Source: Candidatus Saccharimonadia bacterium (lineage in GTDB: Bacteria; Patescibacteriota; Saccharimonadia; UBA4664; JBBRNT01). From it: DNA of 63,971 bases. Below, piece by piece: positions 99 through 6,848 of the stretch. Numbering within the stretch: position 1 is the first letter of the stretch; every line of letters starts with the position of its first letter. A program made the translations under genes and the position numbers. Location: assembly GCA_038230095.1 (NCBI GenBank), contig JBBRNT010000006.1:1-63971 (forward strand). The letters are read 5' to 3'. The notes under the pieces are model-generated. The model did no database searches and was not told where the DNA came from. It saw only the letters and a list, made by a program, of their open reading frames with translations.

Positions 99-349
99 TA
101 GTCGCTCAGTCTTCGAAATATTTGTTGGTTTTGGACGAACAGAGGCGTATTCAAGCCCCTTAATAGCCCATCCTGCTCGCTCAAGGTGCCTTGATTCAGT
201 ACATAGCTAGCATAGTTTCTGAAGTGAGCACGCTCGGTGAGATTTAAACCATGATCCTTGATGAGCTGACTCGTTATTCGTTTATGTTGTTCGATGCGTT
301 TGAACAGGTTTTCGGTGGGCTCTATCTCATCAAACTGGCTGGCAGTGCG
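98..349 (-). pseudogene. C-terminal remnant of a large serine recombinase (CPR type)
   Basis: Hand translation of the minus strand gives RTASQFDEIEPTENLFKRIEQHKRITSQLIKDHGLNLTERAHFRNYASYVLNQGTLSEQDGLLRGLNTPLFVQNQQIFRRLSD*. It resembles the RnYakYiL..G...E...lL..L tail I recall from CPR recombinases. No start codon; bounded upstream by TAG at 350-352. Confidence 0.6.
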
Positions 350-2675
350 CTATCGTACCTACGCGAACACCAAGGAAAAGATGCGCTTGTGGCGATATGG
401 CCTTGAAAAAGAGAAGCAAGAACACAAAATACTCCAAGAGATTACGAAGTACTCTAAAAGAATCCTGGGCTACTTAGTAGTTACTTTAGTGCTCGGCTGG
501 GTTCTGGATCTGACCTTTTGGTGGATCCACCCAACACTGAGCCACATTAACTTTATAACCAGTAACTTTAATTTAATCCAATCTGGTGACTTGCAGGCGG
601 TATTGATCATGTACGTCGGTGCGGTTTCAGCGCTCCTGGGATTAATATTTGCCCTTTATGCCGTGGGGTTTCAACTCTCAACAGAGCGCTACTCAGCTGA
701 CGTGACCGGATTTATGAACGAAGAGCGAGTCAGTAACTACTTCTTCAGCTTACTCATATTTACCGACCTATTCTCCGTAGTGACACTCATAAGACTTCGT
801 TTTGCTAACCCAGAGCCTACCGCAAGCTTTCTATTCGCGACTCTGTTGGTCGCTTTCTGTTTTCTGGGAGTAATAATTTTCAAGAAACACTACATTGAGT
901 CGATGAAACCGATGCGCGTGTTTCAGCGAATCTGGCACTTATTTCTTGAAATGTTCCCAGCGATAACAGCAAGTGATGGCTACAAAACTAAAAGCTGGAG
1001 CATTCAAATAGGTGCCCGCAGTCAGTCCAAACTATACCTAACCATTTTTGGAACGTTGTATCGCGATCTGGTCCGGAACAATAAGCTAGATGATGCCTCA
1101 TATGGCCCAATGATCCTCGGATACGTTATCCGAGATTATTTGAGTAACAAGCGCTATATCAATACAGATCGTGGTTGGTGGGCTGATCAAAAGCTCGATC
1201 AACCAAGAGGAGGCAGTTCGGCCGAATCTTCAATGAAGTCAGCCTATGAGATTCAGGGACGTGGGCCATTTTTTACGTCCAAGCAGGATAACGAATGGTT
1301 TGAAACTCGGGCACTCGAATTACTCAAAGAAATGCGAGATTCTGCCATGAAGTTGGGCGACCATAAAATGCTTCAAAGGGTTTCGGATGGGTATAAGCAA
1401 GTACTAATCGGAGACCGTGAGCGTACAGAGGGCGACCCGATAGATATCCCCGGGGCTTGGCAGAATCAGGAGTTCGAGGTGGTCATCGCAGCGCTAACAG
1501 ACTTTCTAGGACTTGTCGACCAAGTAGACTTTACCGATGAGGGCTATTCAGTGAGCATTTTGAATGACTATTTTGCAGTAGCCGTCACCATGGCAGACAA
1601 ATGGGACATTGAGCCTGCCATAAAAGTCGTAGAGGGCTTCTACGCGGCCGACCAACTGAGTCGATCGACAGAGTTTTTGACAGAAAGAAAGACGCCGTCT
1701 GCAACAAGAAAATCACTGCTCGATTACTGGCAGCGGCTGGAAGTTGAACAAGAAATCGAGGGTAAGGTTATTACTCCAAAGGAACAGCTTGTCGCGGAGT
1801 TCAGGCAGAGTTTAGTAACGAACCTGGAGGCACAAACACGAACAGTATTTACTACCTTTTTCGGTCATTCGACAAACTTGATCGGTAAGTTGGTCAAAGT
1901 ACCAAGTCACGAGTACATCGGGCAGTTTATTAAGATGCAGATGGTTTGGATTAGCCGCTTGCTATACGAGGGACAAACGGAGCTTGCTGAACACTTTGCC
2001 AGTGTACTTAATAAGAATGTAGGATTTCTCCTAGTCTTACCCAATACGATACTCGATAAACTCGAGTTACTTGATTAAGCCGAACGTGGTTTTTTTGTAT
2101 CCATCTATGAAGAAAAGTTTGAATTGATTGAGACGTACTTCAAGGCGCTAGTGTACGTGAGGCTCGTAATTATGAACTCAATGACCGATCCCGAGGAGAT
2201 GGCTCGATATCATAGACTCACAGTGCTTTGGGGCGGCGCACTTTTTGTGCTATCAGAACTGCGCCAAAGCCATATTACCCTCGAGAAATATGTGGTTCTT
2301 CTCAACTCAACCTACCAAAACGGATTGCCACAAATTGTCGAGATTGTTAAAGACTATAGACCTACAAACCTCATCGGGTGGGAGGTTAATCGTTACCACC
2401 AACATTACATGAATCTCGCTCGTAAACTGAAACAGGAGCTTCGAGAGGAGCCCTATCATGACTCGCCCGGAGCAATTGGCTATAGCACCCGCTACGATCA
2501 CCCGAGTCAGTTCATACAGAATCTCTCGCAATGGGACATCGATATTCAGGATCGCTCGATTGCAGGCTTTGCGGATTGGGTGCGTGAGTGGAATTTGAGT
2601 ATACAGCGAGACGCGATACTCGATTTAATCGAACTACTTCGACAGCGGGGAGGCCAAAGCGATGAACAACAGTAG
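294..2675 (+). pseudogene. DUF2254-like membrane protein (about 793 aa if restored), interrupted by one in-frame TAA at 2076-2078
   Basis: N-terminal TM helices with a DUF2254-like segment (LIFALYAVGFQLSTERYS). ORFs 294-2078 and 2124-2675 are in the same frame, and the linker reads LELLD*AERGFFVSIYEEKFELIE with no other stop. True start may be later (e.g. ATG 381). Confidence 0.7.
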
Positions 2676-5175: not shown

Positions 5176-5832
5176 ATGACGAACAATAAATCAATTCTAT
5201 GGGATGATTCTACGCTACAGCACGACGAAGCAGTGGTCGAAGCGCTCGTGGAAAAAATCGTGGTAGGGGATCAGACCCACAAGAAGAAGTGCGTCGATAA
5301 GATAATGGCTACGATAAAAACGAAAGCGTGGCAAAGGAACTATCCCCAACGAATATTCGTCTTTAATATCCTGTATTCCCTAGACGTACATATCATTGAA
5401 ATCAGCTTCTCATTCCACGCTCAAGTGGTTGATGCCTTGTACTTCACAATCTCGCGCGACCTCAAGGCCAGAAATAAGCGGTTTGATGACAAGTTTAACT
5501 TCGTATTCGAGCATATTTACGGTCGCAAGCCCACAAGGACAACATCAGATGCTCTAAGAATCTTAAGAAACAATGTTATGCATACAGGCTCAATCAATGG
5601 AATCCCACCCGTGATAAAAACAGAGGACAAGCGAAGGCTTTCTTATGTATGTAGAAAATATAAGCTTGGTAAGTCAAATCGTGGGGCTACGGCATTAGCC
5701 GCTGAATTCGATTATTTGATCAATGATCTTGTTATCAGGGTCCTTGGGCTTGAGTGGGACGACCTATCACGGAATGGAAGACCCCCATCTTGGTCGGTTT
5801 ACTTTAATAGGGCGAAGAAGCTGCGTAGTTAG
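5176..5832 (+). CDS. Putative HEPN-domain RNase
   Basis: 218 aa, helical-looking, with an R-N-x3-H motif (LRNNVMHTG); 8 nt after the upstream stop. Confidence 0.55.
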   Translation: MTNNKSILWDDSTLQHDEAVVEALVEKIVVGDQTHKKKCVDKIMATIKTKAWQRNYPQRIFVFNILYSLDVHIIEISFSFHAQVVDALYFTISRDLKARNKRFDDKFNFVFEHIYGRKPTRTTSDALRILRNNVMHTGSINGIPPVIKTEDKRRLSYVCRKYKLGKSNRGATALAAEFDYLINDLVIRVLGLEWDDLSRNGRPPSWSVYFNRAKKLRS

Positions 5833-6848
5833 TCTTGGTCTTCGGCATCAATAAGCGGTTGAACCCATTCCCTCAGCTCATCGAGCGTTGCGAGATTGGG
5901 GAAGGGGTTGTCCTCAACAAATTTAGCTTCTAGATTTTGCTCGTGCCATAGCTCAACGCCTCTCCTCGGCACCTTAGCTATGTATGACTTCATTATGTCA
6001 TCGACGACATGGTAATGATGTGTATGAATGAACGTGCTCCATGCCTTGCGTGCCTCCTGCTCGTCAGCTCCAGGCCTAACGATCAGTTCAAATTGCTCAA
6101 ATTGCCTATCGGTGTTTTTGCCCCAACCGTCCTGCAGGAGAGCGATCGCGGCTACATCCGTTACTGGCGCGCTATATCCGTAAACGGTAACGACTCGCGC
6201 TATTTTCATATATGAACGCACAGCATCCCACTGTCCTTTTATAAATTCATTATCTTCGTAATTCTTTTCTGCCACAGGGTACAGAAGGGGCGTTCGTGTC
6301 AGTGAGCCAAAGCACTTAGGGCAATGCGATTCTAGCGTAGATGCAACGCCATCCTTAGAGCAGTAGCCGATAGCTACATTACCGTGTAGAAACACAACTC
6401 GCGGGAGTTTACCTGCCAAACCTCGATCCTGAAGTCGTTGGTACGCCTGAACAAGTAACGGGTCCCAGTTGAAGGTAGCTATTAGGTCGCGGGGGCGCAG
6501 TCCGGCAAGAAGATAGTCGTAATTGGTTAAACCATCGGGAATCTCTATGTCCCCAAAGTAGTCTGCAATCTTATCGTTGAGCGGCTTTAGCTCATCGGGC
6601 GTATGGTCTAGCGCTAGCTCGGAATAAACTGCCTCAAAATTGTTCACAACGCCTGCGTAACCGAGCTCCTTGATCATGCCGTCTACACCGGCTACGTTTA
6701 TCAGGTCATTCATGACTGGCAACGGCTTGCCATTTTTATCGCCATTATTGGTGCTGGCCAAGGCGTGGCTAGCTCCCGCGCCAAGAATGACGAGGTGGCC
6801 TCCGCCGGGTATTACGGTCTTAATTAATTCCTGTCTTGATAGTTCCAT
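5829..6848 (-). CDS. SIR2-like (SIR2_2) NAD+-binding protein, putative NADase
   Basis: VILGAGAS, IATFNWD, FLHGNV and YGYS motifs, plus a partial zinc ribbon (CSKD..CPKC). Confidence 0.85.
   Translation of the reverse strand: MELSRQELIKTVIPGGGHLVILGAGASHALASTNNGDKNGKPLPVMNDLINVAGVDGMIKELGYAGVVNNFEAVYSELALDHTPDELKPLNDKIADYFGDIEIPDGLTNYDYLLAGLRPRDLIATFNWDPLLVQAYQRLQDRGLAGKLPRVVFLHGNVAIGYCSKDGVASTLESHCPKCFGSLTRTPLLYPVAEKNYEDNEFIKGQWDAVRSYMKIARVVTVYGYSAPVTDVAAIALLQDGWGKNTDRQFEQFELIVRPGADEQEARKAWSTFIHTHHYHVVDDIMKSYIAKVPRRGVELWHEQNLEAKFVEDNPFPNLATLDELREWVQPLIDAEDQD

Follow-up and report, generated by a model that had tools for sequence, protein, structure and literature searches.

A conserved gene pair for a membrane protein and a protein with a portal fold, carried by mobile elements and placed at restriction operons, with a possible role in defence

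The left end of a contig from Candidatus Saccharimonadia bacterium (GenBank assembly GCA_038230095.1, contig JBBRNT010000006.1) carries a compact group of five genes, here designated A to E, which is the subject of this report. The window, that is the whole stretch of DNA analyzed, is the entire contig of 63,971 bp, so that the locus stands at a contig end and the DNA to its left is not visible. Genes A to D follow one another on the plus strand with near-zero spacing and gene E converges on them, an arrangement for which all coordinates and spacings of the original prediction proved exact (Table 1). A codes for a DUF2254-like membrane protein, B for a protein with a portal fold, C for a putative zinc protein, and D and E for proteins with a HEPN-type motif and SIR2-like motifs, respectively. 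The open reading frames (ORFs) of B to E are intact, and A is broken. These genes had been proposed to form a single undescribed anti-phage locus. The interval is rather made of three separate things: an A–B module, the optional gene C, and the unrelated cargo genes D and E.

This island stands out by its base composition, and a gene fragment lies at its left edge. The interval had been described as lower in G+C, and measurement agrees with this (0.469 for positions 1–6900 against 0.568 for positions 9000–63971). The remnant reported at its left edge is likewise present and probably derives from a large serine recombinase gene: its last 75 residues align with the C-terminal end of a 470-aa serine recombinase from the homologous locus L001 (L numbers designate fetched loci) with 23% identity. 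This tblastn match is weak (E-value of 1e-6, in a small database), and the remnant has no Pfam match; the L001 recombinase itself is Pfam-confirmed. The left breakpoint of the island is at this remnant. Just downstream of its stop codon lies a terminator-like hairpin which was recognized by eye and which the consensus terminator scan did not return. Within the locus, promoter and terminator scans and Rfam gave nothing above background, and a megablast search of the locus against plasmids gave no match.

The central finding is that A and B form an obligate, ancient and translationally coupled pair. B is located directly after A, with stop and start codons overlapping or abutting, in all 25 assessable lineages, which consist of 23 clusters at 90% identity together with the two most remote assessable B homologues. 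The loci were found by searches from the B side as well as from the A side. Every contig with a B homologue has a DUF2254-type gene of 750–840 aa directly ahead of it, while the A-side scan returned 26 metagenomic loci in which B follows A wherever downstream DNA is present. For the remote B clade, a scan of species-representative genomes yielded five loci, all in Patescibacteria assemblies and each with A abutting or overlapping B. The pair is distributed over Patescibacteria lineages and the window's clade, and both proteins are ~33% identical between L038 and that clade. For A, the ratio of non-synonymous to synonymous substitution rates (dN/dS) is 0.048, and for B it is 0.067; both genes are under strong purifying selection. 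The adjacency of A and B, which holds in 25 of 25 lineages, is not due to chance, and the original suggestion that a membrane protein and a lone portal-like protein make up a module is borne out by this conserved pair.

The nature of B has been addressed through its predicted structure. An AlphaFold2 model computed from 53 sequences reached a predicted local distance difference test score (pLDDT) of 92.6 and a predicted template modelling score of 0.90; it replaced an earlier model from 9 close sequences which was unusable (pLDDT of 47). When this model was compared with the PDB by Foldseek, all 50 listed matches were portals of phages, archaeal viruses or gene transfer agents, with a probability of 1.0. 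The best match cited here is the portal of G20c (E-value of 4e-8, template modelling score of 0.59), and those of P23-45, HK97, lambda, HFTV1, a gene transfer agent, Mu and SPP1 were also retrieved. Matches in BFVD are nearly all portals as well, with E-values down to 2e-8. The template modelling scores of ~0.5–0.6 apply to the whole chain, and the alignments extend over about the whole length of the target chains, at an identity of only 10–12%. In its modeled structure, B is thus confirmed to have the complete fold of a tailed-phage portal, with clip, stem, wing and crown, and the earlier label of portal-like protein is secured at the level of the fold. In size, B falls among the smallest known portals, of which phi29 gp10, with ~309 aa, is an example.

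At the sequence level, B alone has no significant match among Pfam, PADLOC, NCBIfam and PHROG profiles, its E-value against phrog_12 being 0.088, and a PDB profile search was also empty. Among the 53 members of its family, 11 match phrog_12 (best E-value of 3.7e-5), three other portal PHROGs are also matched, and two match Pfam Phage_portal at 0.0065, which is below threshold. When 1.84 billion representatives were searched by profile, the family grew to 78 clusters at 50% identity, whose full-length members are ~340–390 aa long. B is rare: in a set of 5.8 billion proteins it makes up 9 clusters at 90% identity. Although tailed-phage portals share the same overall fold, they are encoded in head operons, while B is always preceded and overlapped by an A gene and has no capsid genes near it. 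A head-morphogenesis context was not found: capsid, protease and portal families are absent from the 25 most frequent Pfam families of the 104 neighbor proteins surveyed within three genes of A–B(–C) in 23 lineages.

The partner of B, protein A, had been called DUF2254-like, and this label holds for its N-terminal membrane part. Residues 61–221 match Pfam DUF2254 (PF10011) with 37.3 bits, above the gathering cutoff of 28.8 (E-value of 1.9e-9), and A homologues bear the same precomputed call. The match covers positions 8–167 of the 368-position model and not the full model. A therefore shares the four-helix membrane region of DUF2254 proteins but leaves the second half of the model unmatched; its length is roughly double, owing to a separate domain of ~570 residues for which a PDB profile search found no relative. 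Hydropathy analysis indicates four hydrophobic N-terminal helices, with a K/R-rich N-terminus and a K/R-rich loop after the fourth helix, from which it follows that the remaining ~570 residues would be cytoplasmic. A is thus predicted to be an inner-membrane protein with both termini in the cytoplasm and its large domain in the same compartment as B.

The surroundings of the pair are of the kind met in defence loci, as originally suspected, since A–B is found on mobile elements and at restriction-modification operons. The most common Pfam families among the surveyed neighbors are DNA methylases (13), ResIII (5), SWI2_SNF2 (4), Resolvase (3), Peptidase_S24 (3) and ParB_N (3). Domains of type I R subunits also occur, and PADLOC identified methylases and a SoFic-like protein. 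Serine recombinases flank the pair in 10 of 23 lineages; when all recombinases and integrases are counted, the figure is 13 of 25. N6/N4 or ParB-fused methylases are near A–B in seven lineages. One of the two remote loci has a tyrosine integrase and an AAA_25 protein, and the other a serine recombinase and a Replic_Relax protein.

Part of these genes belong to a compact element composed of a serine recombinase, TerL, an HTH TerS-like protein, an N6/N4 methylase and a ParB-methylase (Table 1). A comparison of the Patescibacteria version with that of the window's clade gives identities of 41% for TerL, 46% for TerS and 53% for the recombinase, and no capsid genes were seen in the element; this recombinase-terminase element may be satellite-like. 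A 39-kb IMG/VR "virus" with A–B turned out to be two tandem recombinase-TerL-TerS-methylase elements, only one of which carries A–B. The sister element, although its TerL, TerS and methylases are 76–86% identical, has no A–B. The pair is thus accessory cargo of small integrative elements. The same contig led us to reject the idea that A–B is part of a full-size prophage with a portal of its own, as the 39-kb "virus" consists of two small elements; its ORF lists, which stop 1.5 kb short of the contig end and in which most ORFs are unannotated, show no extended series of head or tail genes.

Restriction operons of type I or type III end directly ahead of A–B in several lineages, and often so in Patescibacteria. 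In L025, genes for an HsdM-S fusion and for HsdR come before A in the same orientation, only 4 nt separating hsdR from A, and the same HsdM-S and HsdR genes lie upstream of A in L028. L027, L042 and L046 have a methylase gene and a ResIII gene directly upstream of A. B is at least 90% identical between L025/L028 and L046, and the restriction systems ahead of A differ (HsdMS and HsdR versus methylase and ResIII), which indicates a rapid turnover at the upstream position. In L010, the genes immediately upstream of A–B–C are co-oriented and encode an MmeI-family enzyme, a DEAD helicase, a T5orf172 protein, an FtsK-gamma protein and a DUF2779 protein; this cluster around MmeI, the DEAD helicase and T5orf172 looks like a separate multi-gene defence locus.

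Compared with the constancy of the pair, the position after it is variable, and C is an optional accessory gene. The four CxxC pairs of C start at residues 104, 138, 161 and 185 (region ~104–188), in keeping with the earlier designation of zinc protein, and are predicted to form two zinc ribbons. The corresponding Zn_ribbon matches are all weak, a C-terminal domain is conserved, and the comparison of C with PADLOC gave a single match at chance level (E-value of 0.014). Of the 25 lineages, five have C after B: the window, L009, L010–14, L027 (Patescibacteria) and L029/30. The homologues of L009 and L010–14 are 58–60% identical and those of L027 and L029/30 are remote or split; among neighbor proteins, no remote C homologues were found. 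In L029, as in L030, C is split into two ORFs and its C-terminal part is missing. The other lineages have a different protein after B, often tightly coupled too (F12 or others). Among these third genes only F12 (in L041 and L047) and a protein of 164–170 aa (in L028 and L044) recur; otherwise they show no similarity to one another, and PDB profile searches with three of them were empty. Variation of this sort is usual where a core is combined with an exchangeable accessory gene. The gene after B in L039 has strong TPR repeats, with PDB matches down to 1e-113, and its N-terminus (VFLSYANED...) resembles by eye that of a TIR domain. A degenerate serine recombinase had also been considered for C, as a 537-aa recombinase takes its place in L001 and L008 and as C has a weak integrase PHROG match; direct comparison with the recombinase shows no similarity, and this candidate was rejected.

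From its genomic context, A–B has about an even chance of serving in the defence against, or the exclusion of, phages or rival mobile elements. The portal fold of B suggests the portal–terminase–procapsid interface as the target, and exclusion would then occur at the step of capsid assembly or DNA packaging. B would form a ring resembling a portal, which A would keep at the membrane, and this ring would act as a decoy packaging vertex capturing the terminase–DNA complex or the head-assembly proteins of the invader. A would then merely sequester the captured parts, or else open the membrane and thereby abort the infection. Such a membrane-held portal decoy is the model that we prefer, although, taken as the specific mechanism, it is rather doubtful. 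It is possible, if somewhat unlikely, that B is a domesticated portal working outside a virion, either as a membrane-docked decoy vertex or as a capsid-free DNA channel fed by a terminase and serving small integrative elements, which would represent a new class, widespread in Patescibacteria, and possibly account for the phenotype of Dallas, a system discussed below.

Several observations weigh against a role in defence. None of A, B, D and E matches a system model of PADLOC-DB v2, and C is without a relative in a PDB profile search. Portals of different phages share only ~10% identity, which makes a generic decoy not obviously feasible. Damaged copies of the locus occur in at least three lineages (the window, L005–7 and L029/30). 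Many of the methylases in the neighborhood are orphan enzymes of phage type and not parts of restriction systems. Finally, a TerS-like gene is present within 10 kb in five lineages and TerL in four, on the opposite strand, and B could consequently work with the terminase of its own element and not against that of a phage.

As far as the databases and literature searched show, A–B is novel in kind. The original prediction did not recognize the combination as a named system, and searches of PADLOC, NCBIfam, Pfam and the literature gave no match either. Besides DUF2254, no model in Pfam, NCBIfam or PADLOC covers A, B or C; the DUF2254 papers found do not concern defence, and no relevant portal-like protein was found in defence contexts. 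The closest likeness in architecture is to Kiwa (KwaA/KwaB) and Zorya (ZorAB), in which a polytopic membrane protein is coupled to a cytoplasmic partner and which reside in defence islands. There is, however, no sequence relationship between these systems and A–B, and the partner in A–B has the fold of a virion protein. The position of A 4 nt behind hsdR in L025 is similar to that of restriction-linked modules such as PrrC, which is embedded in a type Ic hsd operon, but PrrC has no homology with A–B, and the pair also occurs without restriction genes.

Other systems are comparable through their target. Avs4 senses the portal and so acts at the portal–terminase machinery, and the Avs4–portal complex (PDB 8dgf) is among the Foldseek matches of B; Avs proteins are nevertheless unrelated to A–B in sequence and architecture. 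The same is true of TERi, a packaging-directed defence which blocks phage packaging through the terminase. Dallas was recovered from metagenomic libraries, assigned to Patescibacteria and reported to act on T4 in a manner dependent on the multiplicity of infection (PMC12366544). T4 escapes it through the TerL substitution T287N, on the side facing the portal, and its protein DdgA has no structural homology according to the authors, the average insert of the libraries being 2 kb (PMC12366544). It is very doubtful, from a comparison by description only, that A–B and Dallas are the same.

If A–B does not act against invaders, it could serve the life cycle of the element which carries it, B being the portal of the element and A a membrane platform. 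In one version of this alternative, procapsids of a helper phage would be nucleated and dedicated to the TerS and TerL of the element; in the other, a terminase would drive the export or import of DNA through a channel without any capsid. Synteny speaks in its favor. The order recombinase, TerL, TerS and methylase followed by a divergent A–B is kept from L038, in Patescibacteria, to the window's clade (L005, L015 and L031) despite the ~33% identity of A and B, and TerS is also present in L027. B moreover spans the whole portal fold, the large domain of A is predicted to lie in the compartment of B, and a precedent for the assembly of a portal at a membrane is found in T4, where the membrane protein gp40 helps the portal gp20 to form its ring at the inner membrane. 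Yet gp40 is small, unrelated to A and encoded within a complete head operon, whereas A–B is without head genes and has no capsid, protease or scaffold genes near it. TerL or TerS is within 10 kb in only 5 of the ~15 lineages with enough upstream sequence. The sister element described above keeps its terminase and methylases without any A–B, and in several lineages the pair shares one operon with restriction enzymes, with no packaging genes near. A function in the life cycle of the element is accordingly held to be unlikely.

Whichever of these functions A–B has, the portal gene is regarded as a hallmark among the virion genes of tailed phages and of herpesviruses, and here the complete portal fold is fixed with a membrane protein outside a head operon. 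If the pair acts in defence, it would illustrate a new principle, the membrane-anchored mimicry of a conserved viral assembly part, and would add to the small number of candidate immune modules in Patescibacteria. A role in the service of the element would point to a so far unknown manner of DNA movement by means of parts of the phage packaging machinery. There is also a practical consequence, as portal matches serve as viral markers in metagenome mining and the B family would give rise to false prophage calls.

A further alternative concerns only the window, where the interval could be what decay has left at the edge of an element integrated long ago, assembled from unrelated cargo and with an A–B pair that has no current function there. 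The state of A is its main support. Intact A homologues have 750–840 aa, while the A of the window lacks ~40 conserved N-terminal codons, the match to the hidden Markov model of the family beginning at profile position 40. Upstream of position 294 the frame is filled with stops, where the recombinase remnant begins, and A thus abuts this 3′ remnant and lacks its upstream promoter region. The in-frame TAA which splits A had already been noticed, and comparison with relatives shows it to be a real nonsense codon: in every homologous locus the parts of A before and after this place adjoin, joined by one sense codon, which in five relatives codes for Gln (CAA or CAG). Judged from these sequence features, the A of the window is a pseudogene, with a missing 5′ end and a CAA-to-TAA change, and the A–B module is probably non-functional there. 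Repair of the TAA, which had been envisaged as a means of restoring the gene, would be insufficient because the 5′ end is missing as well.

Decay also agrees with the position of the island, right where the contig begins, with its foreign base composition, and with the damaged relatives, namely the frameshift of L005–7 and the split C of L029/30. The frameshift lies near the second transmembrane helix of A and is present in L005, L006 and L007, which are three independent assemblies. On the other hand, the ORFs of B to E are all intact, and non-synonymous divergence (pN) is equal on both sides of the nonsense codon (0.138 after and 0.132 before it). The mutation is thus recent, or an assembly error, and any decay would have to be recent too. 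This explanation is also silent on the intact module found elsewhere, for example in contig JAYTXD010000006.1 of GCA_043743105.1, which is under strong purifying selection. We regard as improbable that decay of this kind explains the interval.

The two remaining genes were originally seen as the effectors of the locus, with a sensor or decoy module, made of the membrane protein and the portal-like protein, feeding them. D had been labeled HEPN, and the part of this label which stands is its R-N-x-x-x-H motif, RI[LV]RNNVMHTG, invariant in all three family members. The label is at the level of the motif only, because no profile method supports it: D has no match in Pfam, PADLOC, NCBIfam or PHROG, and a PDB profile search returned nothing relevant. 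Only two other clusters of D homologues exist among 5.8 billion proteins, both in loci unrelated to A–B, and neither the fetched loci L001–L022 nor the clustering of neighbors in representative lineages gave a D homologue in another A–B locus. D is therefore lineage-specific cargo or an add-on, outside the conserved module. One of its homologues ends a tight four-gene operon (L020/L021), behind a KAP NTPase, a protein of 157–173 aa and one of 333 aa. Another homologue, in L018, is convergent with a gene for an HTH-M78 peptidase.

The family of E is far larger, with at least 2,948 homologues that all lack both a name and a Pfam domain. In 32 sequences, the invariant columns are G23, A24 and G25, F126, N127, W128 and D129, and L154, H155 and G156, and those nearly invariant are S27, T125, C163, C176 and C179. 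The motifs GAGAS (in the window protein), TFNWD (FNWDP), LHG and CxxC follow the order GAGxS, T-x-N-x-D, HG and cysteine-rich zinc module, which we take to be that of SIR2 proteins. While the motif order thus agrees with the SIR2 label, the profile methods do not: none of the 32 members matches the Pfam SIR2 families, one matches a PADLOC SIR2 model with an E-value of 0.024, a PDB profile search returned no sirtuin, and hhalign of E with an annotated SIR2 protein gave a probability of 15%. As no profile method supports SIR2, this label is at the level of motifs only. E has a promoter-like site of its own (Table 1), and no homologue of it was found in L001–L022 or within three genes on either side in 22 other representative lineages with A–B. 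E is an independent, convergent, stand-alone gene. On plasmids, members of its family occur as stand-alone genes and lie between SIR2/SLATT genes and McrBC in Vibrio, next to a type I-F CRISPR-Cas system in Legionella, and among metal-resistance genes in Stenotrophomonas; a search of phage genomes gave no match. The E family is by itself a candidate for single-gene defence. It and D are set apart as two further candidates, one a large family with SIR2 motifs beside CRISPR-Cas and McrBC and the other a rare protein with a HEPN motif.

The five genes are next to each other in the window only, and the anticipated co-occurrence of their homologues was verified for A and B, in part for C (5 of 25 lineages), and not for D and E. 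It is thus very unlikely that A–B–C is a sensor or decoy feeding a HEPN RNase D and a SIR2 NADase E, or in a weaker form that D was recruited as an add-on effector in the lineage of the window: the spacing of D and E, the invariant motif of D, its homologue at the end of the KAP NTPase operon, which fits a portable effector, the variability of the gene after B or C and the E homologues in defence islands speak for this, but no other A–B or A–B–C locus fetched contains D or E, both other D clusters are elsewhere, E stands alone in at least 2,948 cases, convergent and with its own promoter-like site, and neither protein matches HEPN or SIR2 profiles. D may at most be a lineage-specific add-on.

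Table 1. Coordinates of the features in the window and in related loci
Feature	Location	Strand	Remarks
Gene A	window, 294–2078; same frame resumes 2124–2675	+	ORF
Gene B	window, 2662–3705	+	347 aa; 14-nt overlap with A
Gene C	window, 3710–5167	+	485 aa; 4-nt gap after B
Gene D	window, 5176–5832	+	218 aa; 8-nt gap after C
Gene E	window, 5829–6848	-	339 aa; convergent, stop end overlaps D by 4 nt
Nonsense codon TAA in A	window, 2076–2078	+	in frame, splits A
Serine recombinase 3′ remnant	window, 101–349	-	83 codons between stops; tblastn
Terminator-like hairpin	window, 72–96		agagcct...aggctct and T-run, G+C-rich; by eye only
Promoter-like site of E	window, 6884–6856
tRNA genes	window, 39297–39369 and 42135–42207 (-)		Rfam
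E family members	L059, 7956–8987; L060, 3450–4427		homology
Compact element	L001, 884–7269; L005, 1–6878; L015, 2312–7178; L038, 3363–8034; L056, 11930–15942		serine recombinase, TerL, HTH TerS-like, N6/N4 methylase, ParB-methylase
Restriction swap loci	L025, 1968–9974; L046, 5716–12292
MmeI-DEAD-T5orf172 cluster	L010, 1–7448		upstream of A–B–C
Frameshifted A	L005, 7544–10014
Split C	L029, 6333–7490
Gene after B with TPR repeats	L039, 7410–8666
Operon ending in a D homologue	L020/L021, 4807–8615		four genes
bAvd gene	L001, 13940–14278		3 kb downstream of B

Two minor observations complete this survey. The two tRNA genes are the sole Rfam matches in the window. In L001, a gene for bAvd, an accessory protein of diversity-generating retroelements, is found downstream of B and adjoins an unannotated gene of 679 aa which recurs in L015.

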